22,232 bases of DNA from a virus (Duplodnaviria; Heunggongvirae; Uroviricota; Caudoviricetes), in IMG/VR virus record IMGVR_UViG_2703718827_000007; one strand, 5' to 3'. A program made the position numbers and the translations under genes. Below the pieces are notes generated by a model. That model was not told the DNA's origin. It did not search any database and was given only the letters and a program-made list of their open reading frames with translations. This document shows, piece by piece, positions 1,899 to 22,232 of the stretch. Every line of letters starts with the position of its first letter. The stretch's first letter is position 1.

Positions 1899-1977
1899 AC
1901 CTGAGTGCCCATTGGAAAACTGCTTGGGCCAATACCTTTATACACCAGCAGGTGGTGACGATGGGTGAGGATCAGGC

Positions 1978-2199: not shown

Positions 2200-2652
2200 A
2201 TATCCAATGTGTATGCTGTCGATGCTACGCGCGCGTACTTGTCGCAAAATATCAGACAAAAGCCAGATTCAGAACGTCGTGATAACCACCAGCACAACAG
2301 AGAGGTCATGTAACGCGATTTATCACACCAGATACATGTGATTGGTACACCCGCATAAAACATCGTCATAGCGCGTCCTGTGCGCATATACGCCGATAAT
2401 CAACACATCACCACCACTCTGTCTCGTGTAGAGAACAGTTTCATGGTATCCCCCGCCATCGTGTGCGTACTGGTCGGACGCAGTTGCAAAAAATTTTGCA
2501 ACTGATACCCCTCGCGCGCGTACTGGTCACGAAATTGGTGTTTTGCTGTGGCAGTGATATCAGAAAAATCTTGCTGTTTCACATAAAGCGGATATGCGCG
2601 TACTGTAACGGCCCCATCAACTGGGAGCGGATTTGAAATCCCGACCCAAGCT

Positions 2653-3072
2653 ATGTACCAAATGCCATGTCTTGGATATATGATGATTGCCATTCTAAAC
2701 AAAGCTAAAGGGAGGGTTGGTGTGAATGCTCAGGCTGTCATCATGGTTTTACTTGGTCTGATTGTCGCAAAACTATATCCAGACTGGTGGAAAGGGGCAT
2801 TAGCAACTGTCGCCATCTATTTGCTTTTATCCGTCGTTAAGCGATCGTTCGTTAAGACCGTAAATCAAGCAAAACGTTTCTCATTTAAGAATTTAATAAA
2901 CTATATTACTGGGCTTATTTTTTGCCTTTCAATTTTGATCGCTTCAGCTTTTTTGCCCGTATCAATAGCTAATTTTTTTGGCGCACCATATGAGGTAGGT
3001 TATCTATTCTCTGTTTTTTGTCTTGTTCTTTCCCTTCTTTACCTATGGATGAGAGCAAAGAACAAAAATTAG
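2653..3072 (+). CDS. Small polytopic inner-membrane protein, immunity-protein-like (maximal ORF; probable true start GTG 2722, about 117 aa)
   Basis: Three to four hydrophobic helices (AVIMVLLGLIVAKL, LATVAIYLLLSVV, ITGLIFCLSILIASAFL, LFSVFCLVLSLLYLW). GGAGGG lies 5 nt upstream of the in-frame GTG at 2722. The gene is AT-rich relative to its neighbours and converges on the 701-aa gene with only 18 bp between the stops. Confidence 0.6.
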   Translation: MYQMPCLGYMMIAILNKAKGRVGVNAQAVIMVLLGLIVAKLYPDWWKGALATVAIYLLLSVVKRSFVKTVNQAKRFSFKNLINYITGLIFCLSILIASAFLPVSIANFFGAPYEVGYLFSVFCLVLSLLYLWMRAKNKN

Positions 3073-3090
3073 CCATCCATGGCTAACCAG

Positions 3091-6662: not shown

Positions 6663-6666
6663 TGAT

Positions 6667-6840
6667 TTACCCACGTCCAGTTAAAGTGTAAGCCAGCGCC
6701 TTATCCATTAATCCCCGAGCAATTTCGTGGATCGTTGGCGCAACTCCTACCTCTGATTTTTTACGCTGCTCCTCCTGAATTTTCTTTATCGCTTCCATTT
6801 GCTTCTCACTTATCAATACTGGCTTTACTGAAATAGCCAT
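6667..6840 (-). CDS. Small 57-aa protein, first gene of the SOS-box operon (possible small DNA-binding or chaperone-like protein)
   Basis: ATG at 6840 preceded by AGGGGG. Translation MAISVKPVLISEKQMEAIKKIQEEQRKKSEVGVAPTIHEIARGLMDKALAYTLTGRG. Below the 60-aa cutoff of the ORF track, so found by manual translation. Confidence 0.45.
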   Translation of the reverse strand: MAISVKPVLISEKQMEAIKKIQEEQRKKSEVGVAPTIHEIARGLMDKALAYTLTGRG

Positions 6841-6854
6841 AACGCCCCCTTAGA

Positions 6855-6872
6855 ACTGTATAAAACAACAGT
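6855..6872. promoter_or_regulatory. LexA (SOS) box ACTGT-N8-ACAGT overlapping the operon promoter
   Basis: ACTGTATAAAACAACAGT matches the CTGT-N8-ACAG consensus with an AT-rich spacer. It lies between a TATAAT -10 (complement of 6875-6880) and the ATG at 6840. Confidence 0.55.
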
Positions 6873-6935
6873 CATTATAGTTTCATAAAACGCAACATTC
6901 ATAATTGTGATTGCAAAATATGAAACAAATAGCAC

Positions 6936-6968
6936 AAAAAAATGCCACCGTTCAGTAGCTGGTGGCAT
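6936..6968 (-). terminator. Rho-independent terminator (minus strand) ending the primase/153-aa transcript
   Basis: On the minus strand an 8-bp GC-rich stem (ATGCCACC...GGTGGCAT, 11-nt loop) is followed by a T7 run. Located 50-85 nt downstream of the stop of the 7021-7479 gene. Confidence 0.55.
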
Positions 6969-7020
6969 CGTTCTGTATGTCAGGTTTTGACAGTTTTTTT
7001 ATGGACTCTAAAAACTATAT

Positions 7021-7479
7021 TTATGGAGTCGCATTACTCTTCATGGCGTGAGCTTTCCTGTTCTCTCTTTGTTCCTGGTTCCATGGATAAGTGTAATTGC
7101 CACCAGCAAAGACCATATTGATTTTGTGAGGAACCATTAAAGCGATATCAGCACTCATGTCACTGAATGAAACACAGTGCAGGCGTTCAAGCCATTTGTA
7201 TGCTGCTGCCGCTTCTCCCCACAAATTAATCCCTGCAAGTTCAACAATATCTCTGATGGAGCAGATATCAACCATCCCGTTAACGCCTGTAAAACGGCGT
7301 TTAAAGTCGCCAAGATACTTTCTGAAAAGAGTTGCTTTCATTGGTTCAGAAAGGTCTATGTATGGGAACACAACCACATCAAGCAGCATCTCCCTTCTGT
7401 TGTTCATCGGTATTACAGATGGCAAATCGGATACTTTGCCAAATACATGATGAAAAGCCTTTGCGATTATCTTCATCAT
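7021..7479 (-). CDS. Hypothetical protein, about 152 aa
   Basis: ORF track start at 7482 is TTG; ATG codons at 7479 and 7476 follow GGGAGA. No family recognised. Confidence 0.6.
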   Translation of the reverse strand: MMKIIAKAFHHVFGKVSDLPSVIPMNNRREMLLDVVVFPYIDLSEPMKATLFRKYLGDFKRRFTGVNGMVDICSIRDIVELAGINLWGEAAAAYKWLERLHCVSFSDMSADIALMVPHKINMVFAGGNYTYPWNQEQRENRKAHAMKSNATP

Positions 7480-7575
7480 CAATCTCCCACTGAAACCAGT
7501 GATGTGGTGTTCAGATTTCGTAAAACACTCTCTAATGCCAGCCAGATGTTGTGCTCATCAATTCAGTCACGTTGT

Positions 7576-7686
7576 GTTGGTTCAAAATGCCGTGTTGTTG
7601 GTTCAGTGTTGGTTCAATAAAAAGAATAAAATCCTTATAAAACAATACTCTTTACAAATTGAACCAACTGAACCAACTGAACCAAC
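7576..7686. repeat. Iteron cluster 2: 3 GTTGGTTCA copies (7576, 7597, 7608) plus 3 tandem TGAACCAAC (7660-7686)
   Basis: Same 9-mer as cluster 1 in mirrored arrangement, immediately 3' of the primase-helicase stop at 7712. Analogous to the ori/crr repeats bound by P4 alpha protein, but with a different repeat unit. Confidence 0.6.
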
Positions 7687-7711
7687 ACCTTTTCTACGCA
7701 CATGAAGAAGC

Positions 7712-10468
7712 TCATTCTTCAGATGAGTTGTAATCTCCTGGCTGGTAATTGAGTACATAAACGTTTATTTGTCGTCCCTGAATACGTGGTGATTTTCTTT
7801 GGTATCCACGACCGCTGTTTGGTGGGGTTAGCATCCCGGCTTTTTTCAACACTTCAGCAAACTGTTTTGCGTTGAAACCACATGCGATCTCCTTTTCAAA
7901 TGTGGCCGGGAATGTGTAGAAAATCATTGGGCTTTCGTCATGTTCTCCACGCTGACGGTATCCGGCTAAATCTTTGATGGGCAAATCTGCCGGGCTGTAT
8001 GGAAATGGTGCAAAACGGCTAAGCCCATAGGCATTAAGAAATGCCTCCGTTTGTTCAATAATCTGCTGATGCTCTTTGTTACCTGTGCCGAACTCGCGCA
8101 ACCATGCGTTATAGCTGTGCTGTATCGCATCACGGCATGTCTGAGCATCCCAGCCTGTTACAACCTCGCCTAACAACAATGCGGCCTCCAGAATGGCAAA
8201 TCGCGCGGCTACACGGTGAACCTGCTCACCATAATCGGATGGGATCAGGCTTCTCCATCTGCTTTCGCAGTCACGAACAGTTTTAATAGCCTGTTGCTGG
8301 TGGTCTGCCAGCCATTTAATCCACTCACGCCCGGACGCGCCGTGGTGATGCTGGTAAGCGTCTTTCAGTGCGTCTGCGTGCTGTTTTCCGTTCTGGTAAT
8401 CGTGAAAGCGTACTGCTTTACTCAACGGAATATTCAGCAGTCGCACCAGTTGCCCGGCTTTGGTTTTTCGCCCGGAAGTAGCGATAAATGTTTCTAAATC
8501 CATTTCTCCGGTGCTGATTGCCACTGTACGCCAGCGTTTTAGATCCCGGTTTCCACCATCTTTAGCGCCTTGCAGTTTCCCTACACCGTTAAATAACGCA
8601 TAGGCAGACTGTGAAACACTGACAGGATCAGCGCCCTGACCAACTTCATCAAGCGGCATTAGTCCGTCATTGTGGGCGGCGGCTTCATTTGCCAGCCCCA
8701 GCGCGGTTCCGTACCACGTCAGCCGCAGTAAATCAGGGTTGCCGTATAAGCTGCTCGCCACGTTTGCCGTGGTGGTCTTACCTGCGCTCGACTGCTCATA
8801 GAAATGAATGCCGAACCCGTCAGCGCCCACCAGCCCAATCAATGGCGCTGCCAGTGCTGCGCCGATCCCGGTCATCATTGAATAGTTACCAAAGGCCAGA
8901 CGCGCCACGTTATCACGCCAGCTTTTCGCGCTCCCTGAGACGGTATATCCGGCTGCGGCTGAGCTTCTCCCGCTGAACAGCACAGGATTTTCAGGTGTTC
9001 CGATGATTTCCCCATCAGGCATGATGTACGCTCCGCATTGCCAGCCAGTGGCATGAGCAACACGCCACAATTCACGAGAGCCACTGCGTTGTAGCCAGTC
9101 TGCCAGTATTGCTCTGAGGCTGCTTTTGGTCGTGACATTTACCCCACCAGCTTTAAGTGTGCGCCATCCTTCACGTTCACCAATATCAGCCAGTGGAATG
9201 GCAGCGGTTGTCGGCGTTTCAGAACCAAACGACAGCCAGCGAAGAATGAGATACTGGTCTTTATCGTCTCTGCCAGTACCGATAACGCTTAACGGAGAAC
9301 ATAACCAGCTTTCGTTATTGATGATTTCTCCACTCTGGCTGTCAGCTCTCGGAGATACCCAATAAATACCATCCTCGCGGCTTTCTATTCTTGGTTTCAG
9401 TGGGTCGGTATCCATAACCTTAAAATCGCTTCCCTCAATGGTCTGTGGCTCCTGTTTCACGCCATTACCCTGTGGTTGGTACATTGACTTATTGAACGCT
9501 TCTGTGGCGCATTTAATGCCGTGTTTTTGGTGGTAATCATTCCAGTCTGCTTTGTGATCTGTCGGGGGTAATGCCACCCATCCAGAAACAGATAAAGCTG
9601 CCTTTTCTGCTGCTATTCTCCCCGTGTTTTGTCTTCCTTCGCTGTGGTCGTTATCCGCAGCAATGATGATTTGTGCTGAAGGAAATTTATCCCGCAGTAC
9701 CTGGGCGACATATAACAGGTTCCCGGCATCAATCGCCGCCACTGTCAGCGCCTCTGGACGAATTAAATGGGCAGATAATGCCGTTGCCAGCCCTTCTGCG
9801 ATTAAGATGCTCTGTGTTGTTTCTGGTGCGTTTATGGCGTGATATGCCCCCCGCTTTGCTGAACCTGTCAGGAGTCTTTTTTCACCATGTGAGGTAATAG
9901 TCTGTGCTGCTGTTACTGCGCCGGATTTATCCACCAGCGCCAGCAACAGAGATCCATCGGGCAACACGGGGAATGTAAAATCACCTACCCCTTTCGCAAC
10001 CAGATAATCAGATTTGCCGTTTACAGCCTTTCTGCGCATGTCATCAAACTGACGGGAAAACGTATCCCGTCTTTGCTGTTCGTCCTTCTCTGCCCTTTTC
10101 AGGCGCTCCTGTTCGCGTCGCTGGCGCTCGGTTTCCAGTTGTTCCCGTTTCTGGCTGGTGGCTTCTGGTGTTTCCGTTGTCCGGTAATCAATACCCAGAA
10201 CATCAGCGGCAAGAAGCGCCGCCTCTGTTGTGTCGCAGTTATTTACGCGTTTAATTAAATCCAGCCCATCACCAGCGCCGCACTGATTACAGATGAAGCT
10301 ACCGCGCCCGTTGTCATCGAACCGGAATCGATCTTTGCCCCCACATGCAGGGCAGGGAGCATGACGGCGCGGAGAGTCAGGGACATTTATGTTCAGGCAG
10401 CCCAGCACATGAGGCCAGTTGTTTTCAGACGCACTGATAACCTGACGGATAAGATCAATGTTTCGCAT
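7712..10468 (-). CDS. P4 alpha-like DNA primase-helicase (zinc ribbon + TOPRIM primase + P-loop helicase + C-terminal DNA-binding region), 918 aa
   Basis: N-terminal zinc ribbon CPACGG...FICNQCG; TOPRIM-like motifs (EGLATALS, IIIAADNDHSEG); Walker A-like SSAGKTT. ATG at 10468 preceded by a GGGGG stretch. Confidence 0.9.
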   Translation of the reverse strand: MRNIDLIRQVISASENNWPHVLGCLNINVPDSPRRHAPCPACGGKDRFRFDDNGRGSFICNQCGAGDGLDLIKRVNNCDTTEAALLAADVLGIDYRTTETPEATSQKREQLETERQRREQERLKRAEKDEQQRRDTFSRQFDDMRRKAVNGKSDYLVAKGVGDFTFPVLPDGSLLLALVDKSGAVTAAQTITSHGEKRLLTGSAKRGAYHAINAPETTQSILIAEGLATALSAHLIRPEALTVAAIDAGNLLYVAQVLRDKFPSAQIIIAADNDHSEGRQNTGRIAAEKAALSVSGWVALPPTDHKADWNDYHQKHGIKCATEAFNKSMYQPQGNGVKQEPQTIEGSDFKVMDTDPLKPRIESREDGIYWVSPRADSQSGEIINNESWLCSPLSVIGTGRDDKDQYLILRWLSFGSETPTTAAIPLADIGEREGWRTLKAGGVNVTTKSSLRAILADWLQRSGSRELWRVAHATGWQCGAYIMPDGEIIGTPENPVLFSGRSSAAAGYTVSGSAKSWRDNVARLAFGNYSMMTGIGAALAAPLIGLVGADGFGIHFYEQSSAGKTTTANVASSLYGNPDLLRLTWYGTALGLANEAAAHNDGLMPLDEVGQGADPVSVSQSAYALFNGVGKLQGAKDGGNRDLKRWRTVAISTGEMDLETFIATSGRKTKAGQLVRLLNIPLSKAVRFHDYQNGKQHADALKDAYQHHHGASGREWIKWLADHQQQAIKTVRDCESRWRSLIPSDYGEQVHRVAARFAILEAALLLGEVVTGWDAQTCRDAIQHSYNAWLREFGTGNKEHQQIIEQTEAFLNAYGLSRFAPFPYSPADLPIKDLAGYRQRGEHDESPMIFYTFPATFEKEIACGFNAKQFAEVLKKAGMLTPPNSGRGYQRKSPRIQGRQINVYVLNYQPGDYNSSEE

Positions 10469-10480
10469 TCTGGCCCCCGT

Positions 10481-11083
10481 TTAGTGCGTCACTGGTGCTT
10501 CTGGGATGCCGTTTTCGTTTAGTTCGGCAATAAAGCTGTTGTGAAGATCGGCAAGCACTTCTCGCCCAAACGAAGTGAGTGTTCCCTGTTCGACATCGAA
10601 CATGTTGCTGTAAAAAATGATGGCATTCTTTGTTCCGACATCAACACCATATTTCTCGATCATTGCGCCCTCAATGTTGTTTGCCATAGCGAGGCGCTCT
10701 GCTACTGGATACAGCGGCATGGCGACGATGCCATTGGAATAAACAGAAACCACGGAATGATTGCCACTGTCATCAATAATGCTGACGGTGCCGTTTTCCT
10801 TTCTCATTTCATTGATGAATGCTGTTGCTATCAGCCAGCGCCACATAATCACGTGATGCTGTGATGTGTAATCGAAATATCCCTGGTTGCCGCCACTGGC
10901 AATAGCGAGATGTATAAACATGCCTTCATCTGGTTTATCGTCATAATCCCCGGCATCCAGACGATTTACGGCATCAATATATGAGACGGTCTCAACGCGT
11001 TCTGTCATGCCATCGTTGCTGCGGTGCATGATGTTTACGCCGTCAGGCGTTGCTTCTGCATGGAAGGTTAAGAAATTATTCAT
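10481..11083 (-). CDS. Hypothetical protein, 200 aa
   Basis: ATG at 11083 overlaps the stop of the upstream ORF (ATGAATAA). Located immediately upstream of the primase-helicase in the same operon. Confidence 0.6.
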   Translation of the reverse strand: MNNFLTFHAEATPDGVNIMHRSNDGMTERVETVSYIDAVNRLDAGDYDDKPDEGMFIHLAIASGGNQGYFDYTSQHHVIMWRWLIATAFINEMRKENGTVSIIDDSGNHSVVSVYSNGIVAMPLYPVAERLAMANNIEGAMIEKYGVDVGTKNAIIFYSNMFDVEQGTLTSFGREVLADLHNSFIAELNENGIPEAPVTH

Positions 11084-11297
11084 GTTTCGCCTCGCCTGAA
11101 TGATTCTGTAACTCATATTTGCCCAACAATTCGTCTGCTTCCTGAATAGCTTCTGGTACGCCATTGAGCAGTGACATAACCGCGCCAATCATTAACTTGT
11201 CTCTGTTGCTGGGGCTGGCCCCTTCAAGCCAGAACCCTAAAACAGTCTGAACCTGTTCGATGCGACATTGCGCTTCAATGAGCTGGATGTTGGTCAT
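11076..11297 (-). CDS. Hypothetical small protein, 73 aa
   Basis: ATG at 11297 overlaps the upstream stop (ATGA), indicating translational coupling. Confidence 0.55.
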   Translation of the reverse strand: MTNIQLIEAQCRIEQVQTVLGFWLEGASPSNRDKLMIGAVMSLLNGVPEAIQEADELLGKYELQNHSGEAKHE

Positions 11298-11557
11298 TTC
11301 GCACTCTCCACATCGATTAAACTGATATCTATCAGGGAGGTAACTTTTTGTAGCCAGCTATTGATTACTGTCGCCTGTTCCCCTCCCACCGAGGGAATAA
11401 TCTCATTCATCACATGAACCAGACCTGTGCGCGCTCTGGTAAGCCGTTCAGTCGCGCAATCTGCGGGAGTGAATGTGTCTGGATATGGCTCTTCGCGCCC
11501 CAGCAATGATTCAATTTCCAGCTCACACGGATGACGATAAATTAAGTTGATATTCAT
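11294..11557 (-). CDS. Hypothetical small protein, 87 aa
   Basis: ATG at 11557 overlaps the upstream stop (ATGA). Confidence 0.55.
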   Translation of the reverse strand: MNINLIYRHPCELEIESLLGREEPYPDTFTPADCATERLTRARTGLVHVMNEIIPSVGGEQATVINSWLQKVTSLIDISLIDVESAK

Positions 11558-11748
11558 TTTTCACCCCCAAGAATTACCAGCTCGGCACGGGCATCGTTAA
11601 CCAAAGATGAGCACGCTTTAATCGCATCCACGACATCAGCAGCGTCCATTTCTTCAGCCGAAAGACTGACAGCAACCAGGACAGCCGCTGCTTGCTCGAT
11701 TAATTGAAGTGCGGACGTAAGGCGAGGGGTATTAATTGAGTTATTCAT
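11554..11748 (-). CDS. Hypothetical small protein, 64 aa (ORF track lists the longer 11554-11805 version)
   Basis: ATG at 11748 ([10 protein letters not shown]...) overlaps the stop of the upstream frame (ATGAATAA) and follows a G-rich stretch. Confidence 0.5.
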   Translation of the reverse strand: MNNSINTPRLTSALQLIEQAAAVLVAVSLSAEEMDAADVVDAIKACSSLVNDARAELVILGGEK

Positions 11749-12808
11749 TGGTTGCCCCCGTTTTGCATGGCATTTGTCCACCTTCCAGCAGGAAATGAAC
11801 GTCACGAACGGCGAGATCCAATATCGCGAGTAACGCCTTCAGTTTTTCGTCTCGTGAGGGAGAGTTGCTCACCAGAATGTCATTAATCACTTCTGTCAGT
11901 GTGATGATCTGGCTTGTGCGTTCGAGGGGATCCATATGCACATCGTAGGTTTTAATCATGTGCCACCTCCATGCGGATACGACCAGCAAAAAAGCAGACG
12001 TGATCGCGCACCAGAGAACGGCGAGCATCGCGTTCAGACTCGGCAGCAATATGATGAATTTTGGCGGTAATTGTCGGGCAATCGCGGCGAACTGCGGCGA
12101 TAATCCAGATAAATTGCGGTTTTTGGGTAGGGGTAGTAGCCAGCATGTGGCAGCCTCCATTCGATAGCATGTAACGCTACCACCGGAAACGCCAATTTCG
12201 CTGGTGGTAGCCCAGACAGGGTTGGCGTAACCGGCTCGAATGGATACCGGCGCTTCCGAAGAAGCCCCTGCCTGAGCCACCATTGATTGACAAAGGCGCT
12301 GGATTATACACCAACGCCCAAAAAATGGGTGAGTCAGACCTACGACATAAAAAAAGACGCTCGGCGCGTCATATGTCGCCATTCGATTTACCAGGACGCC
12401 AATCCCGGCACCCGTTTTATGAGGTGCCTTATAACCATAAACCGTGTTGCCGCATAACGGCAAGCTCTTTTTTATGGACTCCGAAAACTCACTATTGGAA
12501 GAACCAGAAGCACAGTACATCGCGCTCATTTCGTTAACGTCACGCGCGTGGACGAAGGTTTTTGTGGAGTCACTACGCGAGCAGAGAAAGCCATCTACGA
12601 CCAGAAATTCTCTGGCGCAGCCGCTGACCTTCTCAACGCTAACACCATCGACCGTAATTTCTGACATAGTTAAGGCATCCGCTCCTACCACCAGCAAATG
12701 ATAAACTTTGCTTGTATCTGCTGTATTAATGCCTGACTTTGCTGTCATATTGCTGGATTTTGGCGACATACCAGCCAGTGAAAATGTCTTCTTCTGGGCG
12801 GTTAGCAT
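11741..12808 (-). CDS. Hypothetical protein; 355-codon open frame with ambiguous internal organisation
   Basis: ATG at 12808 overlaps the stop of the 60-aa gene (ATGCTAA). The N-terminal two-thirds looks protein-like; the middle (about 11960-12170) is Leu/Pro-rich and looks out of frame. A strong internal start (GGAGGTGGCAC-ATG at 11958) would give a 72-aa product, and an alternative-frame ORF at 11952-12170 has its own GGAGG-ATG. Possibly a frameshifted gene or two to three genes. Confidence 0.4.
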
Positions 12809-12984
12809 TTGTTAACCTCCGCGAACTCCTTCATGAAACGTGCCAGCGGTTGTACGCATGGCGATTGATACCCGTCGCGATAAAACGTCACTCGGTTGTG
12901 AGACACGCTTTCGACAGTAACGAGTGCTCCGTGGGCATCTTTGTAGCGTTTTTGAGGTTGTGGTGTTCCTGTCGGCTTAAACAT
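12802..12984 (-). CDS. Hypothetical small protein, 60 aa
   Basis: ATG at 12984 preceded by GGAGG, 3 nt after the stop of the 277-aa gene. The ORF track extends it to 13071, overlapping the upstream gene. Confidence 0.45.
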   Translation of the reverse strand: MFKPTGTPQPQKRYKDAHGALVTVESVSHNRVTFYRDGYQSPCVQPLARFMKEFAEVNKC

Positions 12985-13810
12985 GGACCGCCTCCAGACG
13001 CTTAGCGAGCCAGCGTTGCGACAGGCGGGTGAGTTCTCCTTTGCGCTGCTCATATTCCATGCCCATATCAATTAACGTGATATTGGTGCTTTCGAGATAT
13101 GAGAGGTGCTCAAGCTGTTCTGCGTTCATATGGTCGCGAGGTTCGCCAGAATAGCCATTTATCCGCGCCCACTGCTTAGCAGTTAGCCCACCAAGAACGA
13201 TACGAGAAATCATATTGCTCTCGTTTGTGTAGTGGTGTTGCTGCGTCGTTTTCCCCATCTCGGCACGGGCCATATTCAGCGCATCGCACATTGGCTTAAA
13301 GTTGTTTGCGGCACTGATACGGGCTTTTAGCTGGCGACGATAGCGGGCGGCGATTTCAGGCACGCTACGCTGTAATTCTTCCTCGCACTGGATGAAATAA
13401 CGGCGGATAGCGCGCCCCTGATCATTGCGTTCGATCATTGCCAGTTCTTTCGCCATTCCGACACTTAACAGATAGTCTTTGCCGGGTCTTCCAGACTGCT
13501 TAATCTTGCTGTAAGCCGCGCCATTCGGGATTTTCCCCAAATTTGGGGAAATAGTTTTATGGACTGAGTAATCGTGCCCAATGGTGAAGTCATATTCAGA
13601 GATGCGATCAGTGATCCATGTAGAGAAGTCTTTTCCCACGCCCAACGCTTTGTGTAACGCTTTTGCGCTAACAATATTGGTTTCACGCCCACCGATATGA
13701 CCAGGAATAACCGGGACAATTGCGGCAAATTCATTACCGTTAATTGTGCCCAGAGAGGCGTTCAGATGAGGGGCAGCCTCAGAAATTAATCTGCTTTTTT
13801 CGATGTTCAT
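12977..13810 (-). CDS. Prophage protein, 277 aa, possibly antirepressor/KilA-C-like
   Basis: ATG at 13810 preceded by GGAG. Segments (NIVSAKALHKALGVGKDFSTWITDRI, GRPGKDYLLSVGMAKELAM, RRYFIQCEEEL) are reminiscent of phage antirepressor-type domains; recollection only. Confidence 0.6.
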   Translation of the reverse strand: MNIEKSRLISEAAPHLNASLGTINGNEFAAIVPVIPGHIGGRETNIVSAKALHKALGVGKDFSTWITDRISEYDFTIGHDYSVHKTISPNLGKIPNGAAYSKIKQSGRPGKDYLLSVGMAKELAMIERNDQGRAIRRYFIQCEEELQRSVPEIAARYRRQLKARISAANNFKPMCDALNMARAEMGKTTQQHHYTNESNMISRIVLGGLTAKQWARINGYSGEPRDHMNAEQLEHLSYLESTNITLIDMGMEYEQRKGELTRLSQRWLAKRLEAVHV

Positions 13811-13822
13811 TTTCAGTCTCCG

Positions 13823-14254
13823 TTAGGCGGCGTTAAACGCGTCCGGGTAGAGTTTCAGAATGTCGGCAATTTCCTGCTGAGAAAGTCCGTTGTGATCATT
13901 TATGTTCGCAAGATGGTTAATATGAGTGATCACTTTCAGAACATCACCACGGCAGGAGAAACGGTAGCGAAGGTGTGTTCCGATACCATCAGGATTCTTT
14001 TCGTCGATACGCTCCAGAGTGATTCCGAGCTGGCGTTCTAACTCTGTTGCATAGTTACGACCAGAAGACAGACGGCAGTAGCGAAGAATGTCATTTTCTG
14101 TCCATCCCTCTATACCAGTACGCAGCATATAGACTCGGGCACGATGCTTTTTCGGCGTGCGCTTTGGTGCTTGAAGGGATTTTGTCAGGGGCGTAACATC
14201 AGATACGCGAATATCTGAATTAGCCGCCTGTAATGGGCGGTTTTTCTTTTCCAT
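13823..14254 (-). CDS. Hypothetical prophage protein, 143 aa
   Basis: ATG at 14254 shares its A with the alpA stop (TGATG). No family recognised. Confidence 0.6.
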   Translation of the reverse strand: MEKKNRPLQAANSDIRVSDVTPLTKSLQAPKRTPKKHRARVYMLRTGIEGWTENDILRYCRLSSGRNYATELERQLGITLERIDEKNPDGIGTHLRYRFSCRGDVLKVITHINHLANINDHNGLSQQEIADILKLYPDAFNAA

Positions 14255-14457
14255 CAGGCCACCTCGTCTCTAGATTCTAATATACACTTCTCAATCCATT
14301 CATCTATTTCAGACTCAACAAAAGCAATTGCCCGACTTCCAATTTTTACCTGTTTAGGGAACCTCCCCTGACTAATAAGACGATAAATCCATGCTTTGCT
14401 ATAACCAGTTCGCCTTTGAACTTCAGAGAGACGAATTAATGAATTGTAATTAGCCAT
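14254..14457 (-). CDS. alpA: AlpA-family phage transcriptional regulator (excisionase-like winged HTH), 67 aa
   Basis: MANYNSLIRLSEVQRRTGYSKAWIYRLISQGRFPKQVKIGSRAIAFVESEIDEWIE is a classic AlpA/Xis-type HTH. First gene of the operon downstream of int. Confidence 0.8.
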   Translation of the reverse strand: MANYNSLIRLSEVQRRTGYSKAWIYRLISQGRFPKQVKIGSRAIAFVESEIDEWIEKCILESRDEVA

Positions 14458-14543
14458 TTATTAATATCCTGTACTAATGACGCAATAACCCCCTCCTGCA
14501 ACGAATGGCGAGAGTTTTATTTGCGTCAAATGTCGAATACGCC

Positions 14544-14578
14544 AAAGACCACAATATGAAAAACATATTGCGGTCTTT
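14544..14578. promoter_or_regulatory. 15-bp inverted repeat (operator or RNA hairpin) in the int-alpA intergenic region
   Basis: AAAGACCACAATATG-aaaaa-CATATTGCGGTCTTT, 14/15 complementary, about 90 nt upstream of the alpA start. Not followed by a T-run on the minus strand, so more likely an operator than a terminator. Confidence 0.3.
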
Positions 14579-14884
14579 TATAAAAGATAGTCAGATTGTT
14601 TTGGTTTGTTTGCTCCACAAGGGTAGAGCTACCCTGCATTTCGGCAGGATCACGCTATTAGGCGTGACATCCAGTAGTTTTAAAGAACAATTGCGCTTTG
14701 TCAGCGCCAAAGCCTGTTAAAGAACATTCCGCTTTTCAGCAGCGTAGAAGGCTCAATACACCTTCGTTTATAAAAGAGCGATTGCCCTTCTCCAGGGCTA
14801 ACTGTTAAATAGCAATCCTCTGTGAGTTTTTATCAATCTACTCCCCTATACTTTAGTAAACCTCTGTATACTTGTCCAGTTGTT

Positions 14885-16099
14885 TCATGCGTGTTTTTCA
14901 AACACCATATGCACCACATTTCCGCCATGCTCGAGAGAATCCATATAGTCGGCATACCATTGAAGCATCTCCCGCCGTCCATCCAGATATTGCGCATGGT
15001 TGTATGTGCCACGAATTGAGTTCTTATCAACGTGAGCGAGCTGCGTTTCTATCCACGCGGTGTTATAGCCCTGCTCATGCAAAATCGTGCTCATAGTGTG
15101 TCGGAACCCATGACCAGTTACACGTCCAGCGTAGCCAATGCGCTTAAACACTTGGTTTATGCTGGCCTCACTCATTGTTTTCCTTGGATCATTGCGCCCG
15201 GGAAACATAAGAGGGTAATTGCCTGTTATTTCTCTAATCTTCCCAATAAGCGAAAGAGCCTGCTCAGACAATGGCACAATATGAGGCCGCCGCATTTTCA
15301 TACGTGAAGCGGGTATCTCCCATATAGCCTTGTTGAAATCAATTTCATCCCATAATGCGCCACGTAGTTCGCCAGTTCGCAAGCCGGTGATAATCAGTAG
15401 GCGAGCCGCCATAACAACCAATGCGCTTCCTGAGTAACTGGATAATGCCTTGAAAAAATCAGGTAATTCTTTGGTCGTAAGGAAAGGGTAATGATTAGAT
15501 TCATGGCCTTGCATCGCGCTAGTAAGGTCTGGTGCAGGGTTATACTCTGCGCGACCAGTGACTATTGCATAGCGGAAAACTTCCCCGCACCGCTGCCTCA
15601 CTTTTTTGGCTTTTTCTGTCGCACCGCGCCCCTCGATGCGCCGCAGCACATTCAGAAGTTCAAGTGGTTTGATTTCGGCGATTGGTTTTTTGCCAATGTA
15701 AGGGAACACATCTTTGTTGAAGGCTTCGAGGATGTCTGAAGCATAACCAGCAGACCATTTTTTTAATTTGCTGCTGTGCCACTCAAGGGCAATATCTTTG
15801 AAGGTGTTGTTTAACTGCGTTTCCCGGGCAATCTTTTCCTCTCGTTTCGCTTCCATCGGATCGATACCACCAGCGATACCTCTTTTCGCATCTTCACGTT
15901 TTGCCCGAGCATCGGCTAGAGTAACCTCAGGATACACACCTAGTGCCAATAGCTTCTCTTTACCAGCTACACGATATTTAAGTCGCCAGTATTTACCTCC
16001 ATTAGGTTTTACCAAGAGATACAAACCGCCACCATCGGCCAGCTTGTAAGCCTTCTCTTTTGGCTTGGCTGTGTCTATTTGACGGGCATTGAGTTTCAC
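14885..16099 (-). CDS. int: P4-type tyrosine integrase (site-specific recombinase), 404 aa
   Basis: N-terminal arm-binding-type region (KLADGGGLYLLVKPNGGKYWRLKYR) and C-terminal catalytic region with the conserved HGFRHT and terminal Tyr context. GTG start at 16099 preceded by GGAGGT. Adjacent to the tRNA-Thr 3' fragment. Confidence 0.9.
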   Translation of the reverse strand: MKLNARQIDTAKPKEKAYKLADGGGLYLLVKPNGGKYWRLKYRVAGKEKLLALGVYPEVTLADARAKREDAKRGIAGGIDPMEAKREEKIARETQLNNTFKDIALEWHSSKLKKWSAGYASDILEAFNKDVFPYIGKKPIAEIKPLELLNVLRRIEGRGATEKAKKVRQRCGEVFRYAIVTGRAEYNPAPDLTSAMQGHESNHYPFLTTKELPDFFKALSSYSGSALVVMAARLLIITGLRTGELRGALWDEIDFNKAIWEIPASRMKMRRPHIVPLSEQALSLIGKIREITGNYPLMFPGRNDPRKTMSEASINQVFKRIGYAGRVTGHGFRHTMSTILHEQGYNTAWIETQLAHVDKNSIRGTYNHAQYLDGRREMLQWYADYMDSLEHGGNVVHMVFEKHA

Positions 16100-16101
16100 T
16101 T

Positions 16102-16247
16102 GGGGGTACCTCCACTAAACCGAACAGCAAATACCCCCATAAGTACCCCCATCTGACCGTAGATTTTGAGGGACTTTAGTAGACGTCAAAAGACGAACGG
16201 GGCTTTAATACGTGGATTATAAGGGGTTTTGAAAGACTTTAGTAGAC
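16102..16247. promoter_or_regulatory. Integrase arm-type repeat region: GGGGGTA (16102-16108), TACCCCCA x2 (16132-16151), GACTTTAGTAGAC x2 (16172-16184, 16235-16247)
   Basis: Direct and inverted short repeats between the int start and the att core. The TACCCCCA pair is duplicated at the distal end (616-635). Confidence 0.35.
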
Positions 16248-16264: not shown

Positions 16265-16310
16265 TGGTGCCGATAATAGGAGTCGAACCTACGACCTTCG
16301 CATTACGAAT
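16265..16310 (-). pseudogene. 3'-terminal 46 nt of a tRNA-Thr (thrW-like, anticodon CGT), prophage attachment-site remnant
   Basis: The minus strand reads ATTCGTAATGCGAAGGTCGTAGGTTCGACTCCTATTATCGGCACCA: anticodon loop TTCGTAA, T-stem GTAGG/CCTAT, T-loop TTCGACT, acceptor strand plus CCA. No matching 5' acceptor (GCCGATA) or D-arm upstream, so the tRNA is truncated at position 31. Identity to thrW is from memory. Confidence 0.7.
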
Positions 16311-16700
16311 TATAAGAATCCGCTTCTAATTCAAAGCATTACCCCATCAACACTGCGCTCACACGTCCCACCACATCAAAACATGTAAAGCCTTGCAAGC
16401 CATTGTGAGGCCTTATGTGTCTCAGTTTTGTCCCACCTTGTATTACGACTTGCATAGCCAATGAAGATCAACGTGACGACAAACGGCGCAGCAGTCTTCT
16501 TTTCCTTCATACTTTCCCTTCCCCTTCCCCACCATGCATACTTTTCTGCCATAACTAAAGTGAATGCCTGTTATAAGCAATAAACAGGCATTAGCGCCGC
16601 TAGCATATTAGCTACCATTCGACTGCCACACTTAAGATTGATTTCTTAAGTATAACCCGGTTTCTAATACCACTTATATATTCAGCTCTGAGATTCATTT

Positions 16701-19700
16701 TTATCTCGTAAAATTAGTTTTATGACTTCCTGTTAGCTGACTGTCTTCATAATAAAATGCCCCACTAAACTCCTGTCGACCATAATGATGACTTGATGTG
16801 AGTGAGCCCCCTATAACACCTTTTTCACCTAATAATGTCCAAACGATTTCAAAACCATTGTCCCTTAACATTGTTAAAAATGGTTCTTTTTTAACAAGTA
16901 GATGCGGCTTTGAAGCATATACAGCTTCAGCTGCAAAGCAAACCATAGTTCCATTTTCATCATTGAAGCTACCCTCTACTTCCCCATTTTTTAAGCCCAT
17001 CTTTTCAAAGATTAAGTTGCTAGGCTTCAAAAAATTCAAAGCTTCTATTTTTGATTTGTCGAACTCCTCTCCCCACAAATAATTAATCGAAGTGACACTA
17101 ACATCAGCTATCTTAGCTCCAGACTCCCGGTCTGTTACCGAAGTCCAGTCAGAACCACCATAATAATCTGATTTAAAAGACTTAAATGCTTCGGACCAAT
17201 AGTACTCCCTATTAAATAATTGGTATCTATCAGTACATTCCGGCATCCACCTGCCCATAAAGTCTTGAGCTATTGCCCAACATCTAAAATTTTCAAATTC
17301 TTGAACTTTAACGATATAACTTCTGATCTGATACCAAACCTCTTTTCGTGGGTGCCCCCAATCATCGTTTCCAATAATTTTTGGTTCTTTCCATGATGGA
17401 TAACTTTCTAATACTATCCATTCATCACCATTATCATCTTTAACTTCAATCAAAGCATATGGATTAGTTATAGTAGTAGAGCTTTTAACCCAGTCTTCAT
17501 TAGAGCAAGTCCAATCAAACACTTCATCATTAAGCCACCACATTTCTTTATTGCTTATTTTTTTCGTCCCAGTTTCTTTAAGTAAGATAGTGGGATCTAT
17601 ATCTCTTACGTAAGGCTCCCATGGCCCTTGGTATGGGTTTTCCTTTCGGTCGTCACCATAACCTTCAAAACGAATAAAATTATCGGCTAGCCTTGCCATG
17701 TATTCATAATAAGCAATCCATTGGTATTTTTTACCAATCCGTTCTTGGAATTCCTCTCTACGTCCACGTCCAGTTCCTATTTGTTGATCAAAATCACCAT
17801 GCTTCTCCGGATCCCAACCAAGTTCCAGAACACGATTGAATATAAATTGTTGAGCTAGTCGAAGATCAAAGTGTTTATCAGTTTCCAGCAGATTATTATT
17901 ATGATCTAGGTATGGCTCTATTTCATTTTCAAACTCACTTAACAGATCGTATGACAATGAATTCTTAAATAGCTTCTTGCTCGCCTTTATTTCTTCCTGT
18001 GCTTTTCTACCGACCACGCTACCAAATTTAATTCCTTCACATTTATCATCATAAATGAAAGGATCTGTAGCATCATACAATTTTTTTTGTTGGTCAGTTA
18101 GTTTACATTTGAAAGTTTTAAAAATTTTCTTACGGTCAATAGGAGTTTCATTAAACTTGCAACCAGACCAATCAGAATGATTGTAATTTGTTCCAATGGT
18201 ATATCGTGAAAAGTCACCACCTCCCATAATCGAGCTCCAGAGTGCCCGATAAGGTTCTTTATTATAAAGAGACTCTAGTTCCTCTTTTGGAGGAATCTCG
18301 TCAGGCCAAATGCTGTTGTAGGGTGGCCTAGTCTTGGATAATTCAATACTTTCAAGTTCCAGTCCAAGATGATTAGCAAATTCAATAATCTCTCTCGCAT
18401 AATCTCTAAGTAATATATTTGGATACACAGACTCAGAACAAAATACCTTTTGGTAAACAGTTTCGGCTAAATATTTTAGTTCTTTAATATTATCAGTTCG
18501 CAATGTACAACCCAATGCAACTGCAAATATTCTTTCCCAAACGTAAGGATCATTTACACCATAAAACTTATCAATTATTTTTCTCAATACAGGAATTCTT
18601 GGCTCGAGTAAACTCACTAAAGCCTTGGTTGAGCAATCTCGAAGTTCTCGGTTACTAGAAGTTAAAAACCAGCATAAACTAGTTGCAACTAGCTCGATTG
18701 ACTCATCCGAAACGAAGCTTTTATCTGTTCTGCCCCATGCCCAATCGATTAGATGCCTAAATGCTGAGTCTTCACTATATTTATATTTAAGTTTTGTAGT
18801 CCAACACGAATCTCGATTTCCCAAAGAGTAATCTTTTAGCCAATCATGCAAGAAATTAGCATTAAAGGGATGGTCAACTAAACCTGAAATAGAGATCACT
18901 GCCTCGAGAAAATGATCAAAACTACCTTTAAATTTAAAAACATGTTCATTGATGAAAGGTCTGATTTTTTCGAAATCAATAGCCTTAATATCTCGCCATA
19001 TCAAGCTATCAATAAAGGCTTCTAGTAATTTATGATTATTGCTGAACTCCGGCAGAAATTCATAAAGCTCTTTTCCATACTTTTCTGGCAATTGAATAGA
19101 AAGCGCCTCAACTATTCCCGAGTTTGTATAAAAATCACATTCATCATGAAAATATTTTTTCAGACGACCATCTGACTTAAATTCATTTTCGATATTTTCA
19201 ACATCATTTAATAAAAAATTAACGGTTAAATGATCATCAAACCTTTCAAAAGCCACATGAACTACTTCCTCAGTAGCATTATCATTATTTCTCACTATGC
19301 CTTTAGTCAATAATCCTTCGTCAATCAAGGCGCTGAGGAAATTTTTATCTGTAACATAATCATTAACTACAGATTGAACCACTGAGTGAGCATCTCTAAG
19401 TGAAATACTATTACTACCAATCTCTAATTTGAATTTTATGATTTCGTTGAGAGCATCTTTTACAAGAGGAAAACTGGGATCGAAATCATATTTTTTTGGC
19501 GATGCCAATGATTTATTCACCCCTTCCACTAAAAAGTTAAAAATATTTGAAATCCCATTAAACCCAACAGGTACTTTGGTTAAACCATTTTTCTTAATGC
19601 CTTCACACAATAACTTAAGAAATAGAGGGTTTTTAAACTCTGGATTAAGATTAGGTGATGAAGGCCTCTCTATATTGTAATAATCATAAAATAGACTAAC

Positions 19701-21155
19701 CGCTTCTAACTCAACATTCTGAAATCCAATATGTTCATGAATTTCAAAATTATTTCGCTCAACATTCTCATGTGAAATTGTTACATTTCTATATGTTGTT
19801 CTGACTGACATTATCAGACCAAGCCATTCAAAGCATCTGATTTCATCGACAAAACTGTTAATATTGTCATTCCAGAATTTATTTCCATTACCTTCATTAA
19901 TAGCATCAATGAAAACCAAGACTCTTTTTCCTGTTTTTTTGCCATATAAATTCAGTTTTTCCAGGAATTCACGAGAAGTGATTTTAAGCTGTAATCTCTT
20001 GAAGATCTGTGACCATGGAGATTCATCTGAAGTAAGTTGTTGCCCTAGTATGAGTAGAGAAGGATATCCAGAAGCAATTCGATTTTTAATCACATCAGCC
20101 AGTAAATGAGACTTACCAATTCCAGCTTTTCCTTCGAGAAGTAAGAATGGGTTGTTAGCCAACTTTACTGTTGTTGAATTAATGAATGTACGTAATTCAT
20201 TGCACGCATAGTCAAGTTCCCGAAGCATTCGCAGAGTAGATGAATACTTATCACTGTAATGCTTGGTTTCACCTACTTGTTCTGACTTTTCTCGGAGTTC
20301 CCACAATATTGATTCCGCTCCGCCAATAGCTGTCTGGCAGCTGTCAACATAGTTATTAAATTTATTTATAGGAATTTGATCTAATTTAGAAAAATTAAGC
20401 TCTTGATATATATCCGCAATTTGATTTAAGGACTCGTCTATTACAGATAATTCTGAGTAAATTACATCGCAACTATGTAACCTCTTTCTAGTCATCAGAA
20501 AATTATCTATATGTGAGTAAAATATTTTAGCAAAATCATCAGTTCTACCGAGACCATCAAATATCTCTGCTATTTCTAGCTTTACGTTGAGTTCGGGTGT
20601 GTATCGGCCTCCCAAGTCAGCTATTGCTTGACTATTTTTTTCATTTAACCAACCATCACTCAAGTGAAAAGTTAGTTTGTCATCTATAGACCGCAAAATA
20701 AGTTTAACTTGAATAAGCTCTTCATTAATATCGAATATTTTTTCTTTATACGTTTCTTCGATATGTAGCTTTTTTAACTTCGAACAATTATTGATTTTTA
20801 ACGATAACATCTCATAAAAAAGGCTGAGTTGTTGTTGAGTTGGGGGGGTGATGCTTGGATATTCTTTGAACTTGTCTAATAATATCCCTTTGTCAGGGAA
20901 CTCTTTAAACAAGATGTGTTCATTCAACATCTCAAACAATGGTTCAGAATGATAAAATGGAATTGCTCCACTTTCTACTGGATATGTTTCTTCAAACTCA
21001 ATTGCCGTCTCTTCAATTAGTTGATATAATCTATCCACATATCTTTTTTGGGGGAATAATGCTTTCTTAATACAACCATATCCTTCTTGAGAGATGAATT
21101 GATCAATAAGTTTAGTTGCTACATAAGTTGCCACTGTAATTGATATAGGTTCCAT
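16701..21155 (-). CDS. NACHT/STAND-like P-loop NTPase, 1484 aa, with unassigned N-terminal (about 335 aa) and C-terminal (about 950 aa) domains; candidate antiphage defence protein
   Basis: Walker A GKAGIGKS (residues 342-349, nt about 20109-20132); Walker B-like VLVFIDAINEG (residues 412-422), close to the NACHT hhhhD-x-h-[DN]-E pattern. The gene is markedly AT-rich compared with the P4-like region and sits between the att remnant and an invertase gene. Confidence 0.85.
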   Translation of the reverse strand: MEPISITVATYVATKLIDQFISQEGYGCIKKALFPQKRYVDRLYQLIEETAIEFEETYPVESGAIPFYHSEPLFEMLNEHILFKEFPDKGILLDKFKEYPSITPPTQQQLSLFYEMLSLKINNCSKLKKLHIEETYKEKIFDINEELIQVKLILRSIDDKLTFHLSDGWLNEKNSQAIADLGGRYTPELNVKLEIAEIFDGLGRTDDFAKIFYSHIDNFLMTRKRLHSCDVIYSELSVIDESLNQIADIYQELNFSKLDQIPINKFNNYVDSCQTAIGGAESILWELREKSEQVGETKHYSDKYSSTLRMLRELDYACNELRTFINSTTVKLANNPFLLLEGKAGIGKSHLLADVIKNRIASGYPSLLILGQQLTSDESPWSQIFKRLQLKITSREFLEKLNLYGKKTGKRVLVFIDAINEGNGNKFWNDNINSFVDEIRCFEWLGLIMSVRTTYRNVTISHENVERNNFEIHEHIGFQNVELEAVSLFYDYYNIERPSSPNLNPEFKNPLFLKLLCEGIKKNGLTKVPVGFNGISNIFNFLVEGVNKSLASPKKYDFDPSFPLVKDALNEIIKFKLEIGSNSISLRDAHSVVQSVVNDYVTDKNFLSALIDEGLLTKGIVRNNDNATEEVVHVAFERFDDHLTVNFLLNDVENIENEFKSDGRLKKYFHDECDFYTNSGIVEALSIQLPEKYGKELYEFLPEFSNNHKLLEAFIDSLIWRDIKAIDFEKIRPFINEHVFKFKGSFDHFLEAVISISGLVDHPFNANFLHDWLKDYSLGNRDSCWTTKLKYKYSEDSAFRHLIDWAWGRTDKSFVSDESIELVATSLCWFLTSSNRELRDCSTKALVSLLEPRIPVLRKIIDKFYGVNDPYVWERIFAVALGCTLRTDNIKELKYLAETVYQKVFCSESVYPNILLRDYAREIIEFANHLGLELESIELSKTRPPYNSIWPDEIPPKEELESLYNKEPYRALWSSIMGGGDFSRYTIGTNYNHSDWSGCKFNETPIDRKKIFKTFKCKLTDQQKKLYDATDPFIYDDKCEGIKFGSVVGRKAQEEIKASKKLFKNSLSYDLLSEFENEIEPYLDHNNNLLETDKHFDLRLAQQFIFNRVLELGWDPEKHGDFDQQIGTGRGRREEFQERIGKKYQWIAYYEYMARLADNFIRFEGYGDDRKENPYQGPWEPYVRDIDPTILLKETGTKKISNKEMWWLNDEVFDWTCSNEDWVKSSTTITNPYALIEVKDDNGDEWIVLESYPSWKEPKIIGNDDWGHPRKEVWYQIRSYIVKVQEFENFRCWAIAQDFMGRWMPECTDRYQLFNREYYWSEAFKSFKSDYYGGSDWTSVTDRESGAKIADVSVTSINYLWGEEFDKSKIEALNFLKPSNLIFEKMGLKNGEVEGSFNDENGTMVCFAAEAVYASKPHLLVKKEPFLTMLRDNGFEIVWTLLGEKGVIGGSLTSSHHYGRQEFSGAFYYEDSQLTGSHKTNFTR

Positions 21156-21677
21156 GATTAGCTTCTTCCAATAATTAAAATTTTACCAAGCGTTTATGCC
21201 TTACAATATGTATTGTATCTCACCGTAAAACATATTTATGTGGTTTTAAACCTATCTGTAAATCTTGCCACCTTGGCAAGAACCTAATCCTACATTTTAA
21301 TATCAGTCTATATAATATAGCCAGTGTCATAATAATCGGGCTTGTCATAGTTAAGTATTCGCCTCCGATATCCCAATGAGATAAGTAAGTCATCAGTGTT
21401 ATAAATGAAAAGATCACATTTTTCAAAGAGTTATTATGATGGAATATTATTCAAAACGCAATGTAGCTGAAACGAGTCTGAGTTTAACATCCGCTCCTAG
21501 TACATAGTAGTCCCAGGGACAGTGGCGTAAAGTCATAGATGGCCGGTGGGAGGTGGTGGAAATCCTCTCATGCAAAAAATACATAAAATCGATAACGGCT
21601 GGAAATCATTCAATACTCGCACCATCGAAAGTTCACCAGCCAACCGCGCACGATCTTGCATACGACATGCTACGGTT

Positions 21678-22232
21678 TCATTTATCTCCGACCGGAAACT
21701 TCTTATACAGTGTCGATACTCCAACATCATAGATGATCGCCACCTTCTGGCGAGGAACGCCTGATGCAATTAATCGCCCGGCCTGCGCCCATTGTTCTGG
21801 TGTAAGTTTGGGACGACGTCCACCAATTCGTCCCTGTGCGCGAGCAACTTCCAGTCCAGCTTTTGTTCGTTCAACAATCAGTTCTCGTTCCATTTCAGCC
21901 AGGGCACCCATCACATGAAAGAAAAAACGCCCCATCGGTGTGCTGGTATCAATAGCATCCGTCAGGCTGCGAAAATTAACGCCACGTTCGCGCAACTCCT
22001 CAACCAGAATGACCAGATGCCGCATACTACGCCCCAGCCGATCCAGCTTCCAGACAACCAGAGTGTCACCTGCCGATAATGTCCTGAGCAGTTTTTTCAG
22101 TCCCGGCCTTTCGGACTTTGTACCGCTTATCTTGTCTTCAAAAATCAGCTCGCATCCTGCACAGTTCAGCGCATTACGTTGTAGATCTGTGTTCTGGTCA
22201 TTTGTTGACACACGTACATAGCCAATAAGCAT
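21678..22232 (-). CDS. Serine recombinase, Hin/Gin/Pin-family DNA invertase, 184 aa
   Basis: MLIGYVRVSTNDQNTDLQRNAL...VVWKLDRLGRS...MGRFFFHVMGALAEMERELIVERT...GVSTLYKKF has the catalytic Ser region and C-terminal HTH typical of Hin/Gin/PinE. The start codon is the last triplet of the window. Confidence 0.9.
   Translation of the reverse strand: MLIGYVRVSTNDQNTDLQRNALNCAGCELIFEDKISGTKSERPGLKKLLRTLSAGDTLVVWKLDRLGRSMRHLVILVEELRERGVNFRSLTDAIDTSTPMGRFFFHVMGALAEMERELIVERTKAGLEVARAQGRIGGRRPKLTPEQWAQAGRLIASGVPRQKVAIIYDVGVSTLYKKFPVGDK

Follow-up and report, generated by a model that had tools for sequence, protein, structure and literature searches.

The gene considered here, avs2, occupies positions 16701 to 21155 of a 22,232-nucleotide stretch of virus DNA (Caudoviricetes; IMG/VR record IMGVR_UViG_2703718827_000007), which as a whole is called the window below. 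Its protein has a close published relative in EcAvs2 of Escherichia coli, which defends against PhiV-1, T7, ZL19 and Pal009 and whose defence is abolished by the mutation K348A (Evans et al., bioRxiv 10.64898/2026.04.30.721860). Whole-genome co-expression screens with PhiV-1 and ZL19 pointed out the large terminase as the only trigger of EcAvs2, and the ATPase domain of the terminase alone suffices; activation was also reported with Ksap1 and with the terminase-like T4 protein vs.8. Terminase induces the oligomerisation of EcAvs2, as seen in size-exclusion chromatography, and cryo-electron microscopy (cryo-EM) at 2.3 Å revealed a flat C4 tetramer. Its TPR domain, its beta-rich C-terminal sensor and a helical extension preceding the NTPase enclose the ATPase domain of the terminase; D981, T1128, R1132 and E1364 hold a bridging ATP, and R1130 touches the ATP of the terminase. 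The recognition is redundant in that single contact mutants have little effect, with alanine at E1362 being partly defective. In most members of the Avs2 family, KpAvs2 among them, the N-terminus is an Mrr-type nuclease, and killing occurs by DNA degradation (bioRxiv 10.64898/2026.04.30.721860).

A second line of published work concerns the first approximately 15 residues of "Avast2", termed "MEPIS", which are common to the E. coli cell-death protein Bab and to the Bell and Hell (HeLo-like) membrane-targeting domains. Mutations in the MEPIS region of Avast2 weaken the defence against T4, and on infection Bab migrates to the periphery of the cell, accompanied by membrane alterations (Ibarlosa et al., bioRxiv 10.1101/2024.11.07.622273). 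Bab/Agp signalling is amyloid-based, with BASS11 as a separate C-terminal segment of Bab and the MEPIS region as the execution helix, and Agp-like sensors activate Bab in trans (bioRxiv 10.1101/2024.11.07.622273).

Family assignment and domain layout

The window protein is Avs2 (AVAST type 2), an NLR-like protein that senses phage infection on its own, as shown by its full-length matches to curated models and its 95% identity to the solved EcAvs2. The Avs2 equivalog model of NCBIfam (NF041813, "AVAST type 2 anti-phage system protein Avs2") was reached with 1692.8 bits against a cutoff of 1000, and the match covered positions 1-1317 of the 1317 profile positions. Six Avs2 models of PADLOC matched as well, the best one (PDLC02164) with 1751 bits over residues 22-1483, and no Avs1 or Avs3 model of PADLOC matched the protein at E-values up to 1. 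The search against PDB sequences returned a single entry, 9o4e chain A, which is EcAvs2 with 1484 residues; the two proteins differ by 74 substitutions without any insertion or deletion (95.01% identity). For the residue comparison the chain sequence of 9o4e was rebuilt from the printed alignments. Pfam gave only sub-threshold P-loop and STAND matches for the whole protein, all at residues 324-427 (nSTAND6 E=0.0016, NB-ARC 0.088, NACHT 0.14), which leaves both terminal parts without a match.

The original prediction, which was made from the letters of the window alone, had described a horizontally acquired single-gene STAND antiphage system with an N-terminal effector and a C-terminal sensor. 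This is borne out by the curated models and by the identity of 95% to EcAvs2. It had considered both terminal parts to be of no assignable family, which holds for Pfam and fails for the defence-specific libraries, where the whole protein is assigned. Of the profile searches it had proposed, PADLOC assigns the protein to Avs2 and those with NACHT and NB-ARC stay below threshold, and the Walker A mutant K348A it had suggested as a control has already been published on EcAvs2, with defence abolished. The gene is therefore not new: it is an already characterised, structurally solved and routinely annotated member of its family, and the annotation pipeline PGAP names avs2 in 87 of 5426 complete E. 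coli genomes.

The gene and its domains are arranged as follows:

16701..21155, minus strand: avs2 coding sequence, an intact open reading frame with ATG start, 1484 residues plus stop
20661..21155, minus strand: N-terminal effector, residues 1-165, predicted to be all-helical and non-enzymatic, with "MEPIS" start and a hydrophobic helix 1 (residues 6-23)
20151..20660, minus strand: helical extension between effector and NTPase, residues 166-335 (approximate), terminase-binding surface in the EcAvs2 structure and hot spot of allelic substitution
19476..20150, minus strand: STAND NTPase module, about residues 336-560 (C-terminal limit approximate), with Walker A and B and sub-threshold Pfam matches
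16704..19475, minus strand: C-terminal sensor, about residues 561-1484, a TPR-like helical domain followed by a beta-rich sensor, with the bridging-ATP and contact residues

Both nucleotide-binding motifs of this giant open reading frame were found at the residues where they had been predicted. The Walker A motif GKAGIGKS lies at residues 342-349 (nt 20109-20132), with K348 as its lysine, and the Walker B motif VLVFIDAINEG at residues 412-422 (nt 19890-19922). The predicted N-terminal effector of about 335 residues has to be reduced in length: an effector is present, covering residues 1-165 only, as the curated Avs2 models start at residues 163-178, and residues 166-335 form the helical extension. 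The C-terminal part of about 950 residues, suspected to be a sensor, corresponds to the TPR-like and beta-rich sensor of EcAvs2 (from about residue 561 to 1484) and has the conserved residues around the bridging ATP.

If the residues with a published role in EcAvs2 are regarded, K348 and the tested sensor residues agree between both proteins in nine out of ten cases. The Walker A and B motifs are identical in 9o4e, and D981, T1128, R1130, R1132 and E1364 around the bridging ATP are all conserved in the window protein. Among the terminase contacts W1266, E1444 and E1462 are retained, and E1362 is replaced by glycine (codon 17070-17072), which is the sole exception. Since K348, the bridging-ATP residues and W1266, E1444 and E1462 are conserved, we infer for the window allele the same mechanism of sensing and assembly as in EcAvs2.

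Prophage carriage and allelic variation

The surroundings of avs2 within the window are given by three further features:

16265..16311, minus strand: 3' 47 nt of tRNA-Thr(CGU) (thrW), a displaced att fragment at the prophage end beside avs2, identical to the annotated gene in two E. coli genomes
21156..21677, minus strand: intergenic region upstream of avs2, 522 bp, AT-rich, GC content (share of guanine and cytosine) 0.377
21678..22232, minus strand: pinE serine invertase (Resolvase E=3.4e-51, plus HTH_7), named pinE in related genomes

The gene thus lies between a tRNA att remnant and a DNA invertase, as had been predicted, with the tRNA-Thr 3' fragment on one side and pinE on the other. Beyond the tRNA fragment the satellite integrase follows directly. 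It was also correctly seen to be more AT-rich than its P4-like neighbour: the GC content of the avs2 coding sequence is 0.347 (0.273 at third codon positions), compared to 0.471 (412-16099) or 0.489 (7712-16099) for the P4-like satellite and 0.499 for pinE. The 44-nt att core is unique in the window, where 0 matches are expected by chance. ARAGORN found no tRNA gene in the window, and Rfam returned only a chance match (E=1) for the att region. The 522-bp region upstream of avs2 presumably holds the gene's own promoter. A consensus promoter scan of this region found no enrichment over shuffled sequences, and a promoter is not claimed.

The comparison with E. coli records (H1, H7 and so on) clarifies to which element the gene belongs. 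In H1 another integrase island adjoins avs2 on the left, and the avs2-pinE segment runs into a complete prophage with a contractile tail, an HK97-type head, a portal and a large terminase. H7 (NZ_CP172337.1) was deposited as a 44.8 kb E. coli "plasmid" and is a complete circular lambdoid phage genome with repressor, O/P replication genes, Q, a lysis cassette, terS/terL, head and tail genes and pinE; its avs2 has the integrase/attP on one side and pinE on the other. The record suggests that the prophage was excised or episomal in the culture that was sequenced. H7 also carries iss, an emrE gene and an IS2 insertion. The order in H8 is LysR remnant, att fragment, avs2, pinE, degraded prophage, int, intact thrW and proA. 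The left flank of avs2 therefore varies between strains and avs2-pinE is constant. We conclude that avs2 is cargo of a lambdoid prophage at thrW, placed in a non-essential slot between the tail-fibre/invertase module and attP, and that pinE is the invertase of the tail-fibre switch of the carrier prophage, a neighbour of avs2 and not a part of the defence system.

The position beside the satellite is due to tandem integration at thrW. In H19-H24, which are without avs2, the satellite integrase abuts an intact tRNA-Thr, followed by proA and proB. That avs2 could be cargo of the P4-like satellite was rejected, as the satellite occurs without avs2 in these records and avs2 occurs on the prophages of H1 and H7. 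The original prediction of a gene at the island junction consequently stands for its location next to the satellite and falls for its belonging to the junction or to the P4-like element, given the prophage context in H1, H7 and H8. A megablast search with avs2 in the 50,697 phage genomes of INPHARED gave no match. The carriage by phage rests on the prophages and the one circular "plasmid" record.

Two small length differences were seen in this area. Approximately at 16292-16418, a segment of about 146 bp separates a 26-nt att core from the phage arm; 19 more nt of tRNA-Thr come first and then unrelated sequence. The window, H1 and H16 have this segment and H7 lacks it, and it may be left over from an earlier integrant or represent a variant of attP. 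A simple-repeat tract of CCCTT/CCCCTT at 16516-16530, about 170 bp downstream of the avs2 stop, is 18 bp longer in H7 and 7 bp shorter in H16.

To describe the variation of the gene itself, five avs2 sequences were compared (window, H1, H7, H16 from strain 98195, and 9o4e), and the open reading frame has the same length in all of them. Two groups can be distinguished. Within the first (window, H1 and H7) the differences amount to 0-2 residues, the protein of H1 being 100% identical to that of the window; in the second, the protein of H16, encoded at the same locus, is one residue off 9o4e. Between the window-type and the EcAvs2-type group there are 73-74 residue differences. These are not evenly spread, as 19 out of 74 substitutions fall within residues 201-300 (nt 20256-20555) of the terminase-facing helical extension (P=3e-7 per 100-residue bin, 5e-6 if corrected for 15 bins). 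The ratio of nonsynonymous to synonymous substitution rates (dN/dS) between the window and H16 was calculated by region:

Effector: 0.06
Helical extension: 0.45
NTPase: 0.03
TPR: 0.27
C-terminal sensor: 0.26

Over the whole gene dN/dS is 0.21; the NTPase and the effector lie at 0.03-0.06, the target-binding parts at 0.26-0.46. A functional receptor would be expected to look like this, its signalling core being constrained and its recognition surfaces freer to evolve. Because all ratios are below 1 there is no evidence of positive selection. The synonymous rate (dS) itself peaks in residues 201-300, at 0.199 compared to 0.104 overall, which hints at a recombined segment.

The N-terminal effector, the proposed mechanism and its alternatives

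The curated Avs2 profiles start at residues 163-178, and residues 1-165 therefore represent an exchangeable module. A profile search with this effector among 1.84 billion cluster representatives (E up to 0.001) found 319 carriers in several length classes of host protein, and the domain was always located at the extreme N-terminus. An exhaustive profile search was needed for this purpose, as the word-indexed homologue search mostly gave short gene fragments. According to Pfam the host proteins are Avs2-like STANDs, NB-ARC+TPR proteins, nSTAND3 NTPases and PIN-TPR-GreABC proteins. The latter, Agp-like architecture was present in 15 of the 38 sampled hosts (1200-1300 residues; P0023 and 14 other representatives). 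Such fusions of the effector with PIN-TPR-GreABC are one-protein versions of the two-gene Bab/Agp amyloid-signalling system. Since these sensors would otherwise act on Bab by way of amyloid signalling and here carry the effector in the same chain, the effector is itself the likely executioner.

The window protein starts with MEPISITVATYVATK, the "MEPIS" motif, and the pattern of this motif is kept across the homologues. The conservation across 103 fusions is hydrophobic and aromatic in character: F67 is invariant, followed by Y68, L43, L77, P105, F113, F117, L127, I140 and F141, and among the 103 homologous effector domains no acidic, basic or histidine position is invariant. Structure prediction and structural search, which had also been proposed at the outset, were applied to the effector. 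An AlphaFold2 model built from 43 diverse sequences has a mean confidence (predicted local distance difference test, pLDDT) of 79.6 and is all-helical, with helices at residues 6-23, 28-32, 36-57, 71-83, 89-97, 107-123 and 125-163; an earlier model from 14 sequences was unusable (pLDDT 63.6). No significant structural or profile match of the effector to any solved protein family member was obtained, and its profile found only EcAvs2 itself among the PDB sequences. On the basis of the model and of the conserved positions the effector is predicted to be helical and non-enzymatic. A nuclease of Mrr or PD-(D/E)xK type was considered and rejected: no Pfam match at all was observed N-terminal of residue 324 at E up to 1, and an invariant charged residue is absent from the 103 domains.

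These observations can be combined with the published work into a mechanistic model. The ATPase domain of a phage large terminase would be bound by the helical extension and by the C-terminal part with its TPR and beta-rich sensor, through shape and charge complementarity and through the bridging ATP. The binding would drive the ATP-dependent assembly of the flat C4 tetramer via the STAND NTPase. In the tetramer four N-terminal effector domains would come together, and the cell would be killed or arrested before phage progeny is formed (abortive infection). As for the killing step, the hydrophobic MEPIS helix 1 might be released upon oligomerisation and damage the membrane. We regard all steps apart from the membrane damage, from the identity as Avs2 to tetramer-driven abortive infection, as highly probable at the least. 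Killing by membrane damage via a released helix 1, the mode of action suggested for Bab/Bell, HeLo and the coiled-coil domain of ZAR1, would by analogy have about an even chance of being correct. We are cautious on this step because helix 1 is only moderately hydrophobic and the effector is without a fold match.

Four points weigh against this model. The most hydrophobic 19-residue window of helix 1 reaches a Kyte-Doolittle value of 1.09, which is below the usual transmembrane threshold of about 1.6. The effector is not visible in the EcAvs2 cryo-EM map, and the authors of that structure regard its function as unknown and probably non-enzymatic (Evans et al., bioRxiv 10.64898/2026.04.30.721860). 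The carrier prophages of H1 (L001 41273-41972; WP_000088174.1) and H7 (L003 16797-18530; WP_000088153.1) encode a large terminase of their own, of the class that Avs2 senses, and might trigger it themselves on induction. Finally, a contact residue is changed in the window allele (E1362G), as are two neighbours of the bridging-ATP residue D981 (E978G and D979G), and the trigger range of this allele may for this reason differ from that of EcAvs2.

The last two points lead to the explanation that survives best besides the proposed model, namely that the window gene is an Avs2 with a shifted recognition range, in which substitutions on terminase-facing surfaces retune the triggers and possibly allow the terminase of the carrier prophage to be tolerated. 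The accumulation of 19 of the 74 substitutions in residues 201-300, with its low P-value per bin, would fit, as would E1362G at a published contact and E978G/D979G beside D981. The distribution of the alleles points in the same direction: the window type is located on the seemingly complete, TerL-encoding prophages of H1 and H7, and the EcAvs2 type on the degraded prophages of H8 and H16, which are without terminase. However, only two strains per allele were inspected, so that this association is anecdotal, and recognition by EcAvs2 is redundant to a degree that single contact mutants have little effect. The dN/dS of 0.26-0.46 in these regions moreover indicates relaxed and not positive selection, and the highest dS in residues 201-300 suggests a recombined segment over local adaptation. 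Taken together we consider a shifted range to be possible, if on balance unlikely. The narrower proposal, that the substitutions retune the discrimination between self and non-self and let an inducible prophage carry a terminase sensor unharmed by its own terminase, appears quite doubtful. If it were true, the E. coli allele pair would provide a ready-made system for mapping the specificity determinants of a bacterial pattern-recognition receptor.

A further explanation concerns the killing step. The effector could be a signalling or templating module which recruits or activates a separate factor of the host or the prophage through an amyloid-like or death-fold-like assembly, with no direct attack on the membrane. 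The amyloid-based signalling of Bab/Agp and the modest hydropathy of helix 1 would agree with this. Yet EcAvs2 alone is functional in heterologous E. coli hosts, the MEPIS region of Bab is the execution helix and not the amyloid motif (BASS11 being separate and C-terminal), and the direct fusion to Agp-like sensors argues for an executioner itself. We therefore judge a recruiting module to be unlikely and retain membrane damage by the effector as the working model.

That avs2 is a decaying, non-functional remnant carried at a prophage end is highly improbable: the surrounding prophage is heavily degraded in some strains, but the reading frame of 4455 nt is intact in AT-rich DNA and of equal length in the five sequences, dN/dS is low overall and lowest in the catalytic and effector parts, and all motif residues are conserved, and a pseudogene was rejected on these grounds. 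It is hardly credible that the protein is a bNACHT-type (NACHT-clade) defence NTPase and not an Avs, since the match to Pfam NACHT (PF05729) stays with 12.4 bits below the cutoff of 26.7 and is limited to the 20 residues 338-357 over the P-loop, and, although the tripartite NLR-like layout would fit, the full-length curated Avs2 matches together with the match to PDB 9o4e are decisive. From the predicted alternative of "bNACHT or Avs type" the second term remains and the first one is discarded; "STAND" is a safer label than "NACHT-like" for the NTPase.

The neighbouring satellite and comparison with known systems

The P4-like satellite next to the prophage end extends from 412 to about 16260. 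Its recognisable genes are:

14885-16099: satellite integrase
12977-13810: AntA
11741-12808: Ash
7712-10468: TOPRIM/DUF927 primase
5196-6674: homologue of a P22 DNA-ejection protein at the variable end of the satellite (Inj_translocase E=1.6e-83)
3091-5196: adjoining open reading frame of 701 residues, likewise a homologue of a P22 DNA-ejection protein, the counterpart of which in H19 is annotated as P22-gp16 family

PADLOC gave no matches on the satellite, and no second att copy that would mark its far end was found with up to 3 mismatches. The corresponding variable region of H19 contains an Abi-family gene. A 21-nt direct repeat, TTTTGARRGACTTTAGTAGAC, occurs at 16164-16184 and 16227-16247, in the stretch that separates the gene of the satellite integrase from the att core; the copies are 90% identical and 63 bp apart, and plausibly represent arm-type binding sites of an integrase.

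With family, trigger, structure and Walker A control published and the gene named by the NCBI pipeline, the discovery value of the locus is small. Three leads arise from it: a second natural allele differing mainly on target-binding surfaces, a terminase sensor riding on a prophage with its own terminase, and the fusion to the sensor type of Bab signalling, which lends independent support to the MEPIS effector as a non-enzymatic executioner module. How the effector kills and how the protein coexists with the terminase of its carrier are questions for the whole EcAvs2 subtype and not for the window alone.

Compared to the described systems, EcAvs2 (WP_063118745.1; PDB 9o4e) is the nearest: both proteins have 1484 residues, are collinear and 95.0% identical, and share the MEPIS-type effector, the Walker motifs, the bridging-ATP residues and most contacts. 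They are set apart by the 74 substitutions (19 of them in residues 201-300), among them E1362G, E978G and D979G.

KpAvs2 and most other Avs2 share with the window protein the family of the NTPase and C-terminal sensor and the large terminase as trigger class, with Ksap1 as an alternative trigger for EcAvs2 and KpAvs2. KpAvs2 differs by its N-terminal Mrr-type endonuclease (K71), which degrades DNA non-specifically, and by its organisation as a three-gene operon; some Avs2 with an Mrr effector have the accessory genes Avap1 and Avap2. In contrast, the window avs2 is without a nuclease domain or conserved residues of catalytic type and stands alone between pinE and att.

SeAvs3 and Avs1 follow the same tripartite logic, with a terminase-induced tetramer and a C-terminal sensor that contacts the terminase ATPase on the same face; bound ATP is recognised as well. 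Their TPR architecture is another one, the tetramer is elongated instead of flat, and the effector is a nuclease; SeAvs3 in addition binds the folded nuclease domain of the terminase.

On the side of the effector the likeness is to small membrane-targeting helical domains, that is Bab/Agp (Babybell with a TPR-GreA/B-C-PIN sensor), Bell, HeLo, Hell, MLKL-4HB and ZAR1-CC, where a MEPIS-type motif heads the domain and its mutation impairs defence. Unlike Bab and Bell, the effector considered here comprises about 165 residues, compared to about 80 in Babybell and about 100 in Bell, and a BASS amyloid motif was not identified in it.

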